DNA of 64,000 nt from a virus (IMGVR_UViG_3300048591_001244:15205-79204), one strand, 5' to 3'. Numbered from the stretch's first letter, positions 44,189 through 49,388 are shown. Made by a program: numbers and translations. Notes: generated by a model from the letters alone, not told the origin.

Positions 44189-44436
44189 CAAAAATTAATC
44201 AAGAACTAATACATACCCTCTCAGCTTCAGAAGCTCAGGAAGGTATTGTTGAAATTGAAAAACTAATGGCTAAGCATCAAGAGGTCTGCTCTCGTATCAG
44301 TACTGATATGGAGCCGGAAGAACTGTTCTACCTACGAATAGAAGCTGCCATGACTGAAAGAGAGCTGCTTGTGGCTAAGAAAAAGATGAGACAACAAATG
44401 AAACGCAAACAAGTTCTCGGGGAGGTGTCATGTTAG
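44185..44436 (+). CDS. Hypothetical coiled-coil protein
   Basis: 83 aa, ATGA overlap with the previous gene. Confidence 0.55.
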   Translation: MTKINQELIHTLSASEAQEGIVEIEKLMAKHQEVCSRISTDMEPEELFYLRIEAAMTERELLVAKKKMRQQMKRKQVLGEVSC

Positions 44437-44523
44437 ATATCCAACAATCACCGCAGAAACGAAAAGCGAGGAAGCAATTATAGGATTAAAACTGCAAGAC
44501 AGAAAAAATGCAAAGTACGTGCC

Positions 44524-44640
44524 GCAGCTAAACGCTGTTGGCGATTTGAAATACGAAATTATCAATCTAAAAATAAAGTAACAATGGAAAACGAAAATTT
44601 GAATACATCAGAAGCCGCCAATAGCGATTTAGGTGCTGTT
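44524..44640 (+). repeat. attC-like hairpin H1 (AAC box degenerate, GTAC)
   Basis: Arms 44524-44543 GCAGCTAAACGCTGTTGGCG / 44616-44636 CGCCAATAGCGATTTAGGTGC, then T-GTT. Confidence 0.7.
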
Positions 44641-44874
44641 AGTGGCAGTAGGGATTCTCAGGAAGATTGGTATGATGATGAATATTACGAGGGACAGCCG
44701 CACGAGGATTGCCCTAAATGTGGTAGAAGCTATGACCATATTGATTTTGATTACCAAAGCTGCTCTAAATGCGGCTGGGATGCTGAAAATGAAAAATGGA
44801 CAGAAGCCCGTGAGCCATCTGATGATGATTATTTAAATGGGGGTGCGGACATTCTTACTGGAAGGTGGTATTAG
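44584..44874 (+). CDS. Cassette 1 cargo: acidic zinc-ribbon protein (CxxC...CxxC); start codon lies in the H1 loop
   Basis: Only Met is at 44584; reads through GTTAGTGGCAGT = VSGS; stop abuts the 3' IR. Confidence 0.7.
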   Translation: MENENLNTSEAANSDLGAVSGSRDSQEDWYDDEYYEGQPHEDCPKCGRSYDHIDFDYQSCSKCGWDAENEKWTEAREPSDDDYLNGGADILTGRWY

Positions 44875-44880
44875 TATTGC

Positions 44881-45012
44881 CACTAACGTGTTTGCGCTTG
44901 GCGCAGTGGCGGATTTCGGAGCGAAAAACTTTCAAACCACCACTAAAGCTGATGCGAGGCACAATGTTGAATTAACCACTAAAACCGCCATTGAGCCAAA
45001 CGCATGTTATGC
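44881..45012 (+). repeat. attC-like hairpin H2
   Basis: CACTAAC-N5-arm 44893-44912 / arm 44985-45004-T-GTTATGC. Confidence 0.8.
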
Positions 45013-45146
45013 TCTCGTTGCGGTTCATTAAGCAGAACTTTCAATCGAAGCAAGGTGTTTTTAATCTTTTTTTGTGCGGTGGTCAAAAAAATATCAACAT
45101 TGAAAATCAGCACTTTAGAGATAATAATACAAATAAGTGAAAAATA

Positions 45147-45190
45147 TTTGTAAAAATGCTTGGTGGTTACAAATAAGCGGCTTATATTTG
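45147..45190 (+). promoter_or_regulatory. Bacteroidota sigma70-type promoter inside cassette 2
   Basis: TATATTTG (TAnnTTTG, -7 box) at 45183-45190 with TTG/TTTG upstream. Confidence 0.55.
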
Positions 45191-45221
45191 TACTGTCATT
45201 AACAATCAAAATAACAAGAAA

Positions 45222-45647
45222 ATGAAAAATTTAATCAAAAACACAATCATCAGACAAGCAATCGAATTAGGTTTTGACTTTGAACAATTCACTAACGATG
45301 CAGATTTGCAAGAAGTAAGCGAAGCACTTATGGACTTCTTTAACGAAAATTCAGACAAGTTGCCAAAACTTGAAGATGCGTGCGAAGTAACAAGCAACGG
45401 AAGAACACAACACGTAAGCTATGGCGATTTTTGGTCTGATGGAGAGATAGTTAATTTTTCAGACAACTGGCACAAATCACCTGAAACAAAAGTTTTTCAC
45501 TCTGATTTTGTAATGGAAGATACTGACGGATTGATGAAAAATATGAACTTGTATTATTTAGTTGGCGAAACTGATTACAACGCACCTGACGGCTACTATT
45601 ACAGCAAAAGCGAAAAAAGACACGTAAAAGAAGAAGAAAATGCGTAA
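45222..45647 (+). CDS. Cassette 2 cargo, hypothetical protein
   Basis: 141 aa, A-rich leader, follows a promoter. Confidence 0.65.
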   Translation: MKNLIKNTIIRQAIELGFDFEQFTNDADLQEVSEALMDFFNENSDKLPKLEDACEVTSNGRTQHVSYGDFWSDGEIVNFSDNWHKSPETKVFHSDFVMEDTDGLMKNMNLYYLVGETDYNAPDGYYYSKSEKRHVKEEENA

Positions 45648-45855
45648 GATTTTTCACTTAGAAATCAAATCGGAAAGCTCCCATAAATACTACGGGAGCT
45701 TATCCGCTTTATGCTCTGAAAACCCAAATTTGGGTATTTCAAAATTCACACTTGACAGATTTGATTTTACAGAACCTTTTGAAAATGCAACTTGCATTAT
45801 CCGAAAATCAGTAATGAAAACTACTGGAAGCGTGGGAGAAAAAGTTAAATGGTAA
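45640..45855 (+). CDS. Cassette 2 cargo, small putative DNA-binding protein
   Basis: 71 aa, YYGSLSAL...LGISKFTL; overlaps the previous stop. Confidence 0.55.
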   Translation: MRKIFHLEIKSESSHKYYGSLSALCSENPNLGISKFTLDRFDFTEPFENATCIIRKSVMKTTGSVGEKVKW

Positions 45856-45962
45856 ATTAGAGAACAACACGAATTTAATTATTAAGTAAAAAACGCTCAC
45901 TTTAGCAGTACGCCCCTGCTTTTGTATAGCGTATGTTATAGGGCGTTTTTAATTTAATCAAA

Positions 45963-46157
45963 ATGAGAACAGTAGAAGTGACAGTAACTTACAAGTATGA
46001 GCTTGAAATTGACGACAACAACGAGATTGTCAAAGAGTATGAAAGCGAAAACGAATTATTGGTGGATTGTGCCACTTATCGTTTCTCAACAGGATTACCT
46101 GTAATTGGTGATGGTGGGGTAAAAGTTAAGGATGTCGAATTGGTCGAGGTTTCTTAA
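45963..46157 (+). CDS. Cassette 3 cargo, hypothetical protein
   Basis: 64 aa bounded by IRs 45935-45948 / 46156-46169. Confidence 0.65.
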   Translation: MRTVEVTVTYKYELEIDDNNEIVKEYESENELLVDCATYRFSTGLPVIGDGGVKVKDVELVEVS

Positions 46158-46162
46158 ATGCC

Positions 46163-46293
46163 CTATAACGTAAAAGTATAAAAGCAGGTGGGGATTGAAC
46201 GGCAAACACGTTTCGACTTGCACAAAACTAAATAAACAGCCGAGGTGGTTAAAAATAGCACATAACCCCACTTGATTTTATACAGTGTTGTGT
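46163..46293 (+). repeat. attC-like hairpin H4
   Basis: CTATAAC-N6-arm 46176-46193 / arm 46266-46283-AGT-GTTGTGT. Confidence 0.8.
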
Positions 46294-46306
46294 GCAGTTA
46301 TTTATT

Positions 46307-46627
46307 ATGTTTAAATTACATTATGCAAGTTTAGATTTAGGGAATAATGATATTCCTTGTTTTGAGTTCAAAAAACATTCTCAAATGGTTGATTTTATTG
46401 ATGAAAAATGTATCAATAGAAATGGAAAAGTTGTTTGGCTTTTGGCTAAAGAAGATTTTACAGATGTTTTTATTTCTGAAAATCATTTAAGTATTCAGGA
46501 TTTTTTAAGTAAAAAAGATTGCTGGCAAACAACTGGTAATTATTTTCTTCAAGAATATACAAGTTTTGAAGATGCTTATCGTGTCGCATTAGATATGTCA
46601 GAAATTAGTCCGCTGTGTTATTCATAA
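46307..46627 (+). CDS. Cassette 4 cargo, hypothetical protein
   Basis: ATG 46307; stop lies within the 3' IR 46624-46638. Confidence 0.65.
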   Translation: MFKLHYASLDLGNNDIPCFEFKKHSQMVDFIDEKCINRNGKVVWLLAKEDFTDVFISENHLSIQDFLSKKDCWQTTGNYFLQEYTSFEDAYRVALDMSEISPLCYS

Positions 46628-46641
46628 TTGCACACAACATC

Positions 46642-46914
46642 ATGAACAACTATCGCTCAATTGACAAAAAAACACCTGAAGTTGTTGACAATACAACAAA
46701 TGATACATATCCTAAAACCCTATACATTCGAAATGAAGTGGGAGGAATGGTGTGGCAAGTATATCATGTTAATAACATAACAGAAGCTCTCAATCTCGTT
46801 AAAAATGCTGTTAAAAATGGATTTTATGGCAACCATACATTAGAAGACCATACAAATGAAACAGAAACATGGCCTGATTGGAGAAAAACAGCACATCCAG
46901 ACATCTTTAAATAA
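46642..46914 (+). CDS. Hypothetical protein
   Basis: ATG 46642 in frame with track ORF 46615-46914. Confidence 0.55.
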   Translation: MNNYRSIDKKTPEVVDNTTNDTYPKTLYIRNEVGGMVWQVYHVNNITEALNLVKNAVKNGFYGNHTLEDHTNETETWPDWRKTAHPDIFK

Positions 46915-46922
46915 CATAAACC

Positions 46923-47291
46923 ATGAAAATAAAAGACATACTAAAGAAATACCTTCCTTATCACATAGTAAAAGAAATAACAGAAGCTATGAAATCACAG
47001 GGAAGAGGACACGAGCTAAATCGCTTTAATTATGCGGTAAAATCACCACATTCAATAATAGGGCTTTCATTTGAATGGGCTATAAAAAACTACTTGAATA
47101 AAAATGACATCTATAAAGATGATAGTGACTTTCAGGATATCATTATTAATTCTTTCTATAATCAACACAATGAAGAAGAAGGTCGGCTAGATGTAAATGA
47201 CAATCCCTGGAAAGACAAATTAGATTATGTACATAATCACTTCGAATTATTCTGTCAGTATGCACAAAATAACTGGAGAAAGATTAAATAA
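46923..47291 (+). CDS. Hypothetical protein
   Basis: 122 aa ORF. Confidence 0.55.
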   Translation: MKIKDILKKYLPYHIVKEITEAMKSQGRGHELNRFNYAVKSPHSIIGLSFEWAIKNYLNKNDIYKDDSDFQDIIINSFYNQHNEEEGRLDVNDNPWKDKLDYVHNHFELFCQYAQNNWRKIK

Positions 47292-47360
47292 AATAAATTT
47301 CATCCCTCGCATCTTGGTCGGTGCGGGGGATTTATAGACGGATGGAAAACTGAAAGTAAC

Positions 47361-47756
47361 ATGATAACAGAGACAAAAGAAATATATAAGTGCGACCATT
47401 GTAAAAAGATGTACCAAAGAAAGTCGGCTTGCATGAGGCACGAAGATGTTTGTTTTAAAAGCCCTGATTTTTTAAGACCATGCCATAGTTGCGTGAATCT
47501 TGAAAAGAGAACCACAACCGTATTTAGCGGACGTAGTGATGAAAACGGCAATGAATATGAAATGACCGTAAACCTTATGTTCTGTAAAAAAAGAGACTGC
47601 TTCATTCATCCACATAAAGTAGCGGTAAAGGGAAATGCTTTCGAGACTGGAGATAAAGAAAATATTGAAATGCCAAAAGAGTGTGAATTTTATGAAAATG
47701 AATATGCGTATGTGTTAAAAGACAATCTAACCCCAACCCATGAAAACCACCCCTGA
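47361..47756 (+). CDS. Cys-rich zinc-binding protein
   Basis: YKCDHCKK...CMRHE..C, CHSC and further Cys. Confidence 0.65.
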   Translation: MITETKEIYKCDHCKKMYQRKSACMRHEDVCFKSPDFLRPCHSCVNLEKRTTTVFSGRSDENGNEYEMTVNLMFCKKRDCFIHPHKVAVKGNAFETGDKENIEMPKECEFYENEYAYVLKDNLTPTHENHP

Positions 47757-48201
47757 CTACTTCAACGAAATAAAATGCCCGATTGTTAGGCGCAGGGCGA
47801 TAAGGAATTGCGATGAACCTGAAAAACAAGAGAGTAGTCTAAAATGGGCAATTCATGGAGGCTTCGTCTGGAGAGAAACTCCTGAAGGTGTTGCATACTG
47901 GAGTGAGGTTTACGAAAACCCACTCGCCCCATCCCCAGAACATCTACTACCTGATGGGTACAGGGAGGAGGCCGAGCCAAACTTGACGTTAGCAGCAGTA
48001 ACGGATTTAAAAATGGAACATTCAAAACAAGAAAAAGAAATTTACGAATTAGCAGAACTTTTGATGCAGTCTGAAAACTTAGAAGCAAGTGCAACTATCC
48101 TTCGTGATTTTGCTGAAAAATGTTACCAAGAAGGTGCAATAGATGCTCAAAATGATGCGGCAAAAGAAATACGTGAACACTATGTAGAAGGTGGTCGGTA
48201 G
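47740..48201 (+). CDS. In-frame fusion of a resident gene (FxWxxTPEG..YW motif) with cassette 5 cargo
   Basis: Cassette IR starts at 47988 inside the ORF; cassette's own ATG at 48013 is in frame. Confidence 0.6.
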   Translation: MKTTPDYFNEIKCPIVRRRAIRNCDEPEKQESSLKWAIHGGFVWRETPEGVAYWSEVYENPLAPSPEHLLPDGYREEAEPNLTLAAVTDLKMEHSKQEKEIYELAELLMQSENLEASATILRDFAEKCYQEGAIDAQNDAAKEIREHYVEGGR

Positions 48202-48208
48202 TTATTGC

Positions 48209-48342
48209 TGCTAACGCCCAAGCAGCTTTGCGTTCGGTGGCGTTTTTAAACCGAACGCTTCACTTAATAACAAAATTTGATATGGAAAAAAATGTAACAA
48301 CCAACACCTACCCACAGCATGACGCAAAACTGCCTGTTAGCG
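48209..48342 (+). repeat. attC-like hairpin H5
   Basis: GCTAAC-N6-GCAGCTTTGCGT (48222-48233) / ACGCAAAACTGC (48322-48333)-CT-GTTAGCG. Confidence 0.7.
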
Positions 48343-48497
48343 GTAGTTATTATTGGTATTGTCGATTCACTTTCAAAGGAGATAAATGTGATTTATACCT
48401 TACAGAAAGAAACAACTGCAAAACATTTAAGGAACTTCGTAGATGGTGGAGAAAAGAGAAACCAAACTTAAAACTTCTGTCAGCGGTCAGGAAATAA
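48282..48497 (+). CDS. Cassette 6 cargo; start codon lies in the H5 loop
   Basis: MEKNVTTNTYPQHDAKLP-VSGS-YYWY...; no other Met; stop lies within the 3' IR. Confidence 0.65.
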   Translation: MEKNVTTNTYPQHDAKLPVSGSYYWYCRFTFKGDKCDLYLTERNNCKTFKELRRWWRKEKPNLKLLSAVRK

Positions 48498-48501
48498 TTT
48501 C

Positions 48502-48653
48502 CGCTAACAAGCTGGTATGTGCTGTGCCAGCCACAAAATTAATAATCACGGCACTAACTTAACAGGCATAGCATATACCGTTTTCGGGCTTGGCGTTCGG
48601 TTTTGTGCGTAGGGCTTGTGGGTGGCAAAACTGACGCAAAACCCGTGTTATAT
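48502..48653 (+). repeat. Two fused attC-like hairpins H6a and H6b with no cassette between them
   Basis: Arms 48514-48528/48565-48579 and 48585-48605/48626-48645. Confidence 0.7.
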
Positions 48654-48743
48654 GAAGGTGGGATTTTCACGCACTACACTCGATTAGAAGCACGTAAAAA
48701 GAAAAAGAAAAAATGAGCGTGGGAAACAATTAAATCATTTAAA

Positions 48744-49241
48744 ATGCAAAAGAACATTTTATTATTTGACGTAGAAAGCACAAGTTTACACGGAACAGGA
48801 TTTGCCGTTGGTGCTATTGTAGTAAACAGAGGCGGAACAGAACTTGACCGATTTGAACTATTAAGCAAGGAGGGGGCTGAAAAAGCAAATGGTTGGGTTA
48901 AACAAAATGTAATACCTAATCTTTCTGATATGCCGACTTGCGAAACAGACAAAGAGCTTCGGGATGCTTTTTTCAACTTCTACGTAAAGCACAAAGAAAC
49001 GGCAGAAATTTGGAGCGATGTAAATTTTCCAGTTGAAACAAACTTTTTACACGCTATTGTAAATGATGCTCCGACAGAAAGAGAATGGTCAATGCCATAT
49101 CCCTTGTTTGATGCTTCAACATTAGTAGATGTAAGCATTGACCGATGTGCAGAATGTGGAATTGATGGATTGAGAAAGCACAACCCACTTGATGACAGCC
49201 GTGCAAGTGTTTACTTTCTTTTGAAATCATTGGGTCACTAA
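48744..49241 (+). CDS. Cassette 7 cargo: DEDDh-type 3'-5' exonuclease-like protein
   Basis: LLFDVEST (ExoI) and KHNPLDDS (ExoIII-h) motifs. Confidence 0.75.
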   Translation: MQKNILLFDVESTSLHGTGFAVGAIVVNRGGTELDRFELLSKEGAEKANGWVKQNVIPNLSDMPTCETDKELRDAFFNFYVKHKETAEIWSDVNFPVETNFLHAIVNDAPTEREWSMPYPLFDASTLVDVSIDRCAECGIDGLRKHNPLDDSRASVYFLLKSLGH

Positions 49242-49388
49242 ATCATTTGAGCGTGGGCAGATTTTTTCTTTTTCTTTTTCCCGAAAGTTCAATCGAAGCA
49301 CTCCTGCCCACTTTCATATAACAATATATATCCGCATCTGCAAAATAAAACTACCGAATAATATTACTAACGATTAATATCCAGACCC

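Follow-up and report, generated by a model that had tools for sequence, protein, structure and literature searches.

Putative start codons and leaders in attC-like hairpins ahead of Met-less cassettes in a phage array

Two cassettes of a Bacteroidota phage, C1 and C6, raise the question of where a cargo reading frame that holds no start codon could be translated from, and of which cassette the sequence that supplies the start belongs to. Both lie in a 64,000-nt stretch (the window) of the 79,204-bp (~79 kb) genome of a complete tailed phage, within an array that contains at least 6 hairpins between 44.5 and 48.7 kb. These hairpins are attC-like and 120 to 130 nt long, with one ahead of each cassette. 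The features discussed below are as follows, in window coordinates.

44519–49322, + strand: array of hairpins alternating with GTT...AAC cassettes, all ORFs on the + strand
44519–44637, + strand: hairpin 1, the first array element, with an attC-like body; arms at about 44527–44548 and 44617–44637
44584–44874, + strand: C1 ORF, 96 aa, a CPKCG...CSKCG zinc-ribbon cargo lacking its own start codon
44584–44637, + strand: C1 leader, ATG plus 17 codons (MENENLNTSEAANSDLGA), from the loop and right arm of hairpin 1
44638–44649, + strand: C1 junction core GTTAGTGGCAGT, read as VSGS; also the 5' inverted repeat of C1
44878–44887, + strand: C1 3' inverted repeat TGCCACTAAC, complementary to 44638–44647
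44888–45006, + strand: hairpin 2, recognized by inverted repeat, folding and a sequence match to a phage 6H hairpin
48216–48335, + strand: hairpin 5' of C6, of a different family from hairpin 1; arms at 48219–48233 and 48322–48336
48282–48497, + strand: C6 ORF, 71 aa, with an 18-codon leader (MEKNVTTNTYPQHDAKLP), VSGS and a YYWYCRFTF... cargo without its own start codon
48336–48347, + strand: C6 junction core GTTAGCGGTAGT, read as VSGS
48501–48508, + strand: C6 3' inverted repeat CCGCTAAC, an 8-bp inverted match
49323–49335, + strand: AATATATATCCGC, candidate attI-like end, directly after the AAC of the final cassette, with no hairpin beyond

Start-less cargos and the hairpins ahead of them

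The first-pass annotation of this locus held that the C1 and C6 cargos lack an in-frame ATG and that their ORFs begin in the loop of the upstream hairpin and continue through GTT AGY GGY AGT. Reading the sequence and a scripted check both confirm this, and extend it to GTG and TTG. In C1, 18 codons separate ATG 44584 from GTTAGTGGCAGT, whose GTT is codon 19 in phase 0, and past the junction in-frame ATG, GTG and TTG are all absent, the sole start candidates being two ATT codons within the zinc ribbon. Upstream of ATG 44584 the frame is open as far as 44437, an interval with no in-frame ATG, GTG or TTG. C6 likewise has exactly 18 leader codons, from ATG 48282 to GTTAGCGGTAGT, crosses its junction in phase 0 and contains no in-frame ATG, GTG or TTG past it in the script check; a TTG (48228) and a GTG (48240) occur upstream in this frame, in or beside the left arm of the hairpin. 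C3, C4, C5 and C7 do carry their own ATG, as had been annotated (45963; 46307 or 46322; 48013; and 48744, respectively).

In both hairpins the ATG lies between the arms of an inverted repeat, formed in hairpin 1 by 44530–44543 with 44616–44629 (86% complementary) and ahead of C6 by 48219–48233 with 48322–48336 (87% complementary). Hairpin 1 folds as DNA at −18.6 kcal/mol (z = −2.35), and its loop carries an A-rich leader together with the ATG, the 30 nt ahead of ATG 44584 being 80% A+T. Within the loop of the C6 hairpin lie an inner stem-loop, an A-rich stretch and ATG 48282. The triplet at the left end of hairpin 1 is TAC (44516–44518), where relatives have AAC. Hairpin 2 lacks a working leader ORF; it shares 71% identity with a hairpin of Flavobacterium phage 6H. 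The probable products of C1 and C6 are proteins bearing an 18-residue hairpin-encoded leader and VSGS.

The cassette ends are marked by GTT...AAC inverted matches of 10 bp at 44638/44887, 45935/46169, 46287/46638, 47988/48215 and 48647/49322, and of 8 bp in C6 (48336/48508). Contigs of other wastewater metagenomes match one cassette or one hairpin of the array, breaking at 44883–45010, 45934/5 and 47988, and a contig from an RNA library joins 44903 to 48262. An Rfam search of the window returned no matches; Rfam contains no attC model.

Recurrence of the hairpins, leaders and reading frames

Hairpins of the C1 type occur in ~40 contigs, 33 of them viral stretches and 7 binned to Bacteroidota MAGs. 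Behind them the leader frame runs on for 40 codons or more without a stop in 23 of 24 different cargos, against 4 and 1 of 24 for the other two frames, with median open lengths of 54.5 versus 13.5 and 0 codons; one locus, L049, is the sole context of the 24 that acts like a short upstream ORF. Stops fall within the leader region in frame +1 of 28 and in frame +2 of 25 of the 29 distinct hairpins, and in frame 0 of none. In 25 of these 29 the ATG-to-GTT distance is exactly 54 nt; the AAC-to-ATG distance ranges between 50 and 74 nt. The arrangement of hairpin and leader frame is more than chance. The stems exist in 4 variants with compensatory changes, 11 of 15 predicted pairs being kept via two-sided changes, and the middle of the leader varies along with them (ANSDLG, AQLGIG, PALQQG). 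An N-terminus of the form ME[HN]ENLN is common to many cargos behind these hairpins, and the loop sequence immediately 5' of the ATG, though non-coding, is as conserved as the coding part. One chimeric hairpin (L093) is joined inside the conserved loop.

Homologues of both cargos have N-termini of many kinds. All 26 C6 homologues have YYW[YH]C directly past the junction and no Met of their own, and they are preceded by at least 10 unrelated leaders, a C1-type leader among them (P0092). Among the 87 C1 homologues, a majority possess a Met of their own. At least 8 leader types with a V-x-x-S end are found in about 18 of the homologues, and one (P0003) reads VSGS-M where C1 of the window reads VSGS-R. 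These protein-database homologues come from gene callers, which require a start codon, a bias lessened by a small set of 14 C6 loci obtained from DNA searches rather than gene calling. In this set an in-frame ATG lies upstream within the hairpin at all 3 viral loci and at all 11 assessable loci from metagenomes, and in the loop at every locus where a fold could be made. The cultured Flavobacterium phage 6H has an array of the same design, and two of its annotated CDSs (AGN89434 and AGN89436) begin at loop ATGs.

The view that the hairpin and not the cargo encodes the start codon and the N-terminal leader is thus upheld by the unrelated leaders and by a pair of loci, L049 and L090, in which an identical hairpin (100% over ~125 nt) precedes two unrelated cargos and the match breaks off sharply at GTTA. 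Homologues of each cargo were found with many unrelated N-termini ending in V-x-x-S instead of a single shared one, and neither C1 nor C6 contains a plausible internal start. Initiation of Met-less cassettes at a loop ATG is predicted for this phage and for dozens of other Bacteroidota phages, a mode of starting translation that is undescribed for integrons.

Cassette polarity and the recombinase of related phages

Ownership of the hairpin can be judged from breakpoints between loci whose hairpin bodies are at least 95% identical. The hairpin and its downstream cargo are kept and the upstream side is changed in 3 independent pairs, and the opposite pattern occurs in 0, a small count. In 3 further pairs near-identical hairpins differ on both flanks, so something exchanges at the GTT side as well. 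One unit of hairpin plus C6 recurs at no fewer than 8 loci; upstream it has at least 6 different ends, and downstream at least 6 different flanks. The same cargo at different loci is followed by different hairpins. The array finishes with cargo, AAC and a TATATAT-rich motif; its last cassette is without a hairpin and its first hairpin without AAC. The hairpins also fold asymmetrically: the sense strand folds better in 23 of 24 members of the C1-type family, by a mean of 5.3 kcal/mol (RNA parameters), and, among 20 hairpins that belong to other families, is the more stable strand in 16 (DNA parameters). Such a bias marks the recombined strand in canonical attC sites (PMC5027507); the strand favoured here is the ORF-sense strand, which reverses the canonical relation.

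A search for PF00589 in the 79,204-bp genome gave no match, and a tyrosine recombinase is absent from this genome and from 8 of 10 complete relatives. In all 5 related contigs that possess one, an Xer/IntI-like recombinase adjoins the array. The enzyme is 263–293 aa long, with SAM-like and catalytic tyrosine-recombinase domains, and matches XerA, IntI4 and XerD among solved structures. It scores 157 bits against the integron integrase model TIGR02249 (curated cut-off 265) and 168 bits against the XerA model (curated cut-off 220); its IntI match falls into two separate stretches, as would fit absence of the IntI-specific insertion. The TATATAT-rich motif follows the last AAC both in the window and in 4 of the related contigs (L149–L152), and in these 4 the recombinase ATG lies 40–55 nt past it. 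We regard AATATATATCCGC as a candidate attI-like end because it resembles this motif between the last cassette and the recombinase gene.

Taken together, the breakpoints, the array ends, the TATATAT motif, the Xer-like recombinase of relatives and the strand asymmetry suggest that the hairpin is most probably a 5' site belonging to the cassette itself rather than the 3' site of its neighbour. The layout would then be that of a classical integron on the other strand, with recombinase, attI-like site and repeated units of cargo plus attC, the cargo being inverted. The Xer-like enzyme may be the recombinase of the arrays, and the hairpins would be recombined as folded single strands. A hairpin that is the cassette's own site should carry leader and cargo along together in ordinary shuffling, even though leaders and cargos have been re-assorted at the GTT boundary across evolutionary time.

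Competing explanations and known systems

We consider it reasonably probable that this is an integron-like array in which each hairpin is the 5' site of its own cassette and Met-less cargos are started from a loop ATG. In the transcript each ORF would lie behind a stable stem. Translation in Bacteroidota initiates at unstructured A-rich leaders, not at Shine-Dalgarno sites, and this, with the stable stems, is the likely reason why the loop would be the only accessible start site. In some hairpin families the large loop contains an unpaired A-rich stretch with an ATG. The frame runs from this ATG through the 3' arm and over the recombination core, where GTT is one of its codons, into the start-less cargo, and translation through the 3' arm would melt the stem.

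The first-pass annotation had instead inferred that shuffling could toggle translation and swap N-termini. This corresponds to canonical integron polarity, with each hairpin serving as attC at the 3' end of the cassette before it, and with Met-less cassettes borrowing start codon and leader from the neighbour that happens to lie upstream. The order of elements on the + strand (ORF, ...AAC, hairpin, GTT...) does resemble a canonical cassette, and the sharp GTTA break between L049 and L090 speaks for this model, as do the unrelated leaders on closely related C6 cargos. We nevertheless find it unlikely: a hairpin kept with its upstream cassette ahead of another cargo was seen in 0 pairs against 3 of the opposite kind, the same cargo has differing hairpins downstream, and the ends of the array, with no hairpin after the last cassette and no AAC on the first hairpin, the recombinase and TATATAT motif at the ORF-distal end and the direction of the strand bias (PMC5027507) all run counter to it. 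Swapping of N-termini stands as an outcome over evolution, but not as the ordinary result of shuffling, in which the hairpin should travel with its downstream cargo (the same 3 pairs versus 0). The proposed on/off switching found no support, as none of the 14 assessable C6-family loci is a translational 'off' copy.

The hairpins could also be RNA-level elements, acting in mRNA stability or processing or in start-site presentation, and be shuffled between co-infecting phages by homologous recombination with no site-specific recombinase. The same has been proposed for the PeSL (promoter-early stem-loop) cassettes of T4-type phages, small variable ORFs between conserved stem-loop modules that would be exchanged by homologous recombination. 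Most complete array-bearing phages lack a tyrosine recombinase, chimeric hairpins (L093 and the 44903-to-48262 RNA-library contig) are joined in the conserved loop, and the better-folding sense strand, being the mRNA strand, equally fits a function in RNA. We rate this explanation as improbable, since it would leave unexplained the cassette-specific inverted repeats of 10–13 bp, the sharp breaks that fall precisely at AAC and GTT on either side of a body that is 100% identical, and the recurrent Xer/IntI-like recombinase with its conserved motif at the array end. Less probable again is a functional leader peptide, a targeting or cleavable signal to which the hairpin is secondary, as in the T4 internal proteins, where a conserved capsid-targeting leader, a functional peptide, is joined to variable proteins. 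The shared ME[HN]ENLN N-terminus and the fixed 18-codon length of both window leaders would suit such a peptide; however, the leaders here, unlike that of T4, follow the hairpin sequence. Their middle changes track the compensatory stem changes, leaders of different hairpin families are unrelated, the non-coding loop 5' of the ATG is equally conserved, and many homologues have no leader at all. We know of no AAC/GTT boxes or cassette-specific end repeats in either the PeSL or the T4 leader systems. Hardly to be credited is the idea that the loop ATGs are incidental and that C1 and C6 are remnants that go untranslated or else begin at a non-standard codon within the cargo. Expression of both is predicted from the sequence, and C1 does have in-frame ATT codons, but these sit within the zinc ribbon, the frame is kept in 23 of 24 contexts, stops in the leader region occur nearly always in the other two frames and never in the leader frame, and both cargo families are widely conserved as proteins.

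Set beside integrons, the array combines familiar and unfamiliar traits. Its palindromes are imperfect and bounded by AAC...GTT (TAC in the first hairpin), as in attC sites, and each 5' core is complementary to the cassette's own 3' inverse core (10 bp in five cassettes, 8 bp in C6), as in integron cassettes and likewise in the arrays of phage 6H and the relatives. In contrast to attC, the hairpin appears to lie 5' of its ORF, so that relative to the polarity of attC the cargo is inverted; a canonical attC 3' of a co-oriented ORF is ruled against by the 3-versus-0 pairs, the hairpin-plus-C6 unit, the array ends and the recombinase position. The loop, too, differs from that of an attC in holding a start codon and a leader that runs on into the cargo. 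The end repeats, at up to 10–13 bp, are unlike those of integron cassettes, and the spacer beside the AAC/GTT box is asymmetric (~5 nt versus 1 nt), unlike canonical attC. Extrahelical bases vary with the stem variant, from a single right-arm bulge in one to only a G·T pair in another.

The closest functional parallel comes from the short ORFs of attI1 and attC. Stems of attC block ribosomes, a block relieved by short ORFs in attI1 or attC, and ORF-11, ORF-17 and ORF-18 of attI1 and the attC short ORFs aid cassettes without initiation signals (PMC8876359). As here, an ORF with its own start signal begins in the recombination site and crosses the crossover point. Those ORFs, however, start from a Shine-Dalgarno site rather than an A-rich loop and stop at the core or close to it, as a rule at the TAG in GTTAG, acting by termination and re-initiation, whereas the ORF here reads GTT as a codon and continues in frame into a start-less cargo. 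Coupling of the ORF-11 type was rejected on these grounds, GTT AGY being read as Val-Ser and the cargo having no start codon.

A complete integron was likewise rejected, given the genome without a PF00589 match and an enzyme in relatives that is too short and falls below the TIGR02249 cut-off. In having at least 6 hairpins between 44.5 and 48.7 kb and no tyrosine recombinase, the locus resembles a CALIN, an integrase-less cluster of two or more attC sites spaced over a few kb, provided that the hairpins are taken to be attC-like. Neither phage 6H nor this phage group is named in the text and one supplementary file of a study of phage CALINs (Qi et al. 2023, PMC9892861). As in integron arrays and phage CALINs, the ORFs here are small, mostly unannotated and in a single orientation. 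DNA methyltransferases, reported as frequent cargo of phage CALINs (Qi et al. 2023, PMC9892861), are also frequent among the cargo of the relatives' arrays.

Start codons in the hairpins before C1 and C6

The virus record is 79,204 bp long, has direct terminal repeats and is rated complete; the window covers its bases 15205-79204. The features relevant to the cassette array are as follows.

Minus strand: portal, large terminase and major head protein (confirmed)
Plus strand: helicases
44.5-49.3 kb, plus strand: a series of small ORFs, none with a family match
44519-44637, plus strand: hairpin 1, in front of cassette C1
44584-44874, plus strand: C1 ORF, encoding a zinc-ribbon protein
48216-48335, plus strand: C6 hairpin, of another family
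48282-48497, plus strand: C6 ORF

Rfam gave 0 matches over the entire window, searches of the cassette ORFs against Pfam and PHROGs gave nothing beyond one sub-threshold match to DUF7128, and a tblastn search of phages with the DnaB-like helicase returned no informative relatives. At most 18% of the words sampled occurred in any one sequencing run, and every run consisted of contigs; coverage in the RNA libraries X15 and X16 was left out as expression evidence, these data being contigs.

The ends of the cassettes, each running from GTT to AAC, are genuine, with end matches that are a perfect 10 bp in five cassettes and 8 bp in C6. A leader of 80% A+T precedes the ATG of the C1 ORF, which continues for 18 codons and enters the cassette through GTT AGT GGC AGT; these codons give VSGS, the GTT being in phase 0; C6 likewise has 18 leader codons and then GTT AGC GGT AGT. 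Each of the two ATGs is enclosed by the arms of an inverted repeat (I17 and I12, which were also folded), and a script check of the sequence found no in-frame ATG, GTG or TTG past the junction in either ORF. The first-pass annotation had described these two ORFs as starting in the loop of the upstream hairpin and running through its right arm and the VSGS junction, and C3, C4, C5 and C7 as carrying their own ATG; both descriptions are borne out, and the C1/C6 observation is not only confirmed but generalises strongly. We infer that translation would begin at the loop ATG. An ORF at 47740-48201 with no hairpin directly ahead spans the cassette boundary at 47988 (GTTAGCAGCAGT, read there in a different phase) and stays in frame past the cassette's own ATG at 48013; a contig from another metagenome covers 47988-48208 only.

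The hairpin family and the leaders of related cargos

A search with the loop of hairpin 1 as pattern recovered 33 viral stretches and 7 true matches, the latter on short contigs assigned to MAGs of Bacteroidota. The 7 are what remained of 78 stretches in the MAG-contig scan, the others being chance matches to an A/T-rich pattern. After removal of duplicates, 24 distinct cargos stood behind a hairpin of the C1 type, and the leader frame was open for at least 40 codons in 23 of them, compared with 4 and 1 for the other two frames. Within the leader region itself, frame 0 lacked a stop in every case and the other two frames nearly always contained stops. Of 29 distinct hairpins, 25 had a spacing of exactly 54 nt between ATG and GTT; the spacing between AAC and ATG ranged from 50 to 74 nt. 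Compensatory changes set apart four stem variants within the family, and since 11 of the 15 predicted pairs are preserved by changes on both sides, the hairpin structure is under selection. The peptide encoded in the middle of the leader, judging from these variants, just tracks the stem sequence. The C1-type leader is joined to a different cargo in a 462-kb uncultured phage, and the array of 6H, a cultured Flavobacterium phage, has the same design, with one hairpin 71% identical to hairpin 2 of the window and two annotated CDS that begin at loop ATGs. The start-in-hairpin arrangement is thus beyond chance and not private to the window phage.

The homologues of the two cargos do not always share one N-terminus, and many of their leaders are unrelated, which favours the observation; the earlier proposal correctly has start codon and N-terminus supplied by the hairpin. 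All 26 C6 homologues have YYW[YH]C directly after the junction and none has its own Met (0/26), and they carry at least 10 unrelated leaders, including the C1-type leader. Most of the 87 C1 zinc-ribbon homologues are 67-85 aa long with their own Met, and about 18 of the 87 bear leaders with a V-x-x-S end, of at least 8 kinds. In the C1 homologue P0003, VSGS-M stands in the place of the window's VSGS-R, suggesting that an ancestral ATG was lost after the upstream start came into use. C6 loci were also sampled by DNA search instead of gene calling, and in these copies an in-frame ATG lay upstream in the hairpin in all 3 viral cases and in all 11 metagenome cases that could be assessed, in the loop wherever a fold was possible and across several hairpin families.

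Two further arrangements were seen among these relatives. In the locus L008 (1048-1404), where the junction reads VVGS, and in the protein P0111, a longer upstream ORF of 40-60 residues reads across the junction into C1 or C6 cargo, so ordinary genes, too, can be fusion partners of a start-less cargo. In a "VLADS" subtype of C6 (L134, L136-L141), the core is 13 nt long (GTTAGCGGATAGT), the GTT is out of phase (GTG TTA) and the hairpin leader is in the matching frame; core length and the phase of the hairpin seem co-adapted.

Assignment of hairpins to cassettes

The first-pass annotation had treated the hairpin as a property of the neighbouring cassette, such that routine shuffling would toggle expression. 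Both parts of this proposal are probably wrong: four kinds of evidence, from breakpoints, a recurring unit, the array ends and strand bias, indicate that the hairpin probably belongs to its downstream ORF. Locus pairs whose hairpin bodies share at least 95% identity were compared: in 3 independent pairs the hairpin and downstream cargo were kept while the upstream side changed, and the reverse occurred in 0. Both sides differed in 3 pairs, in one of which the body is 100% identical and the breaks fall exactly at CTAAC and GTTA. One unit of hairpin plus C6 was seen in at least 8 loci, where its upstream ends are of at least 6 kinds and its downstream flanks likewise of at least 6. The array starts with a hairpin that has a degenerate left triplet, and it ends with cargo and AAC followed by AATATATAT (49323-49335) instead of a hairpin; the motif and recombinase gene past the last cassette of related arrays (see below) are part of this evidence. 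Of the two strands, the ORF-sense one folds better in 23 of 24 hairpins, and in 16 of 20 that belong to other families; in canonical attC sites, such a bias, which G:T mispairs cause, identifies the strand that is recombined, with the crossover at its AAC (PMC5027507). A 3-nt right-arm bulge was considered as an extrahelical polarity feature and dropped, computed folds failing to reproduce it in some stem variants.

Unrelated leaders occur on closely related C6 cargos and unrelated cargos behind identical hairpins, so something must also exchange hairpins and cargos at the GTT side. Homologous recombination contributes, given the chimeric hairpins joined in the loop (L093; one contig). At L093:1578-1721 the right half and the cargo match L090 and L111 exactly, but the left arm derives from a different type of hairpin; the join is in the conserved loop, and the two arms no longer fit together. 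Among contigs of other wastewater metagenomes there are matches to just one cassette or one hairpin that break off at the box boundaries, which supports modular mobility, not expression.

The window also holds two tandem hairpins at 48509-48646. Apart from the right end, which it lacks, the first (48509-48580) is nearly the same as the hairpin before a C1-family cassette in L010; for the second (about 48586-48646), an RNA-library contig shows a CTAAC left end of its own. In L012 (about 1330-1360), an ORF-less mini-cassette of about 30 bp (GTTATAGCATC...GCTATAAC) precedes a hairpin and looks like an empty cassette.

A possible start module in an integron-like array

Initiation in Bacteroidota typically uses unstructured A-rich leaders, not Shine-Dalgarno pairing. 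An attC before each ORF in the transcript would place a stable stem ahead of every gene, and the loop would therefore be the natural place to start. Stems of attC sites are an obstacle to ribosomes, which short ORFs within attI1 or attC help to overcome (PMC8876359). The phage loop ORF most likely goes one step further than ORF-11, by in-frame fusion to a cargo that has given up its own start codon. In the locus L049 the cargo has its own ATG and the leader ORF stops after a few codons.

The array shares hairpins, AAC/GTT boxes and cassette-specific end repeats with integron cassettes, and attC clusters lacking an integrase have been reported from phages, one of them a Polaribacter phage (PMC9892861). 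Viewed from the opposite strand, the arrangement corresponds to a classical integron, with recombinase, attI-like site and cassettes each followed by an attC, but all cargo in the phage arrays is inverted, and the hairpins deviate from canonical attC sites in spacer and bulges. The usual integron cassette consists of an ORF with its own start signal and then an attC, the opposite orientation being reported as never observed (PMC5027507). No tyrosine recombinase was found in the 79,204-bp genome. In 5 of 5 related contigs with a tyrosine recombinase (L149-L152, L033), an Xer/IntI-like gene of 263-293 aa adjoins the array, just past the last cassette and co-oriented with the ORFs. Four related contigs have a TATATAT-rich motif after the last cassette, the recombinase gene starting 40-55 nt beyond; the window retains this motif (49323-49335) without the gene.

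It is possible, if on balance somewhat improbable, that these arrays represent a distinct class of Bacteroidota-phage integron, with a short Xer-like recombinase lacking the IntI domain, a TATATAT-rich attI-like site, inverted cargo, and attC loops that evolved into standard start modules acting as a DNA-level "spliced leader". Every ORF would then have its own attC ahead of it in the transcript, and each module would comprise an A-rich stretch, an ATG and about 18 codons in phase 0 through the GTT core, by which start-less ORF fragments could be captured, expressed and now and then given a new N-terminus.

A widespread family of phage arrays appears to be laid out in reverse relative to integrons, with the expression problem apparently solved by a start codon inside the hairpin. 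If so, gene callers and integron finders would mis-describe such loci, searching the wrong strand or rejecting the sites, and the N-termini of many small phage proteins would be set by DNA structure, not protein function. Phage 6H would offer a cultured system for hairpin-loop starts in a phylum without Shine-Dalgarno initiation, and the arrays a candidate new recombinase/site pair for single-strand recombination.

DNA methyltransferases (N6/N4, C5) lie directly beside hairpins in related arrays (L025:6976-7794, L111:6096-6794, L053:7244-7894, L084:5834-6889), echoing the cargo reported for phage CALINs. At 44433-44446 of the window, GTTAGATATCCAAC overlaps the stop codon of the last ORF ahead of the array. 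Two inverted GTT/AAC boxes lie within it, and it resembles the boundary motif noted for a phage CALIN (PMC9892861).
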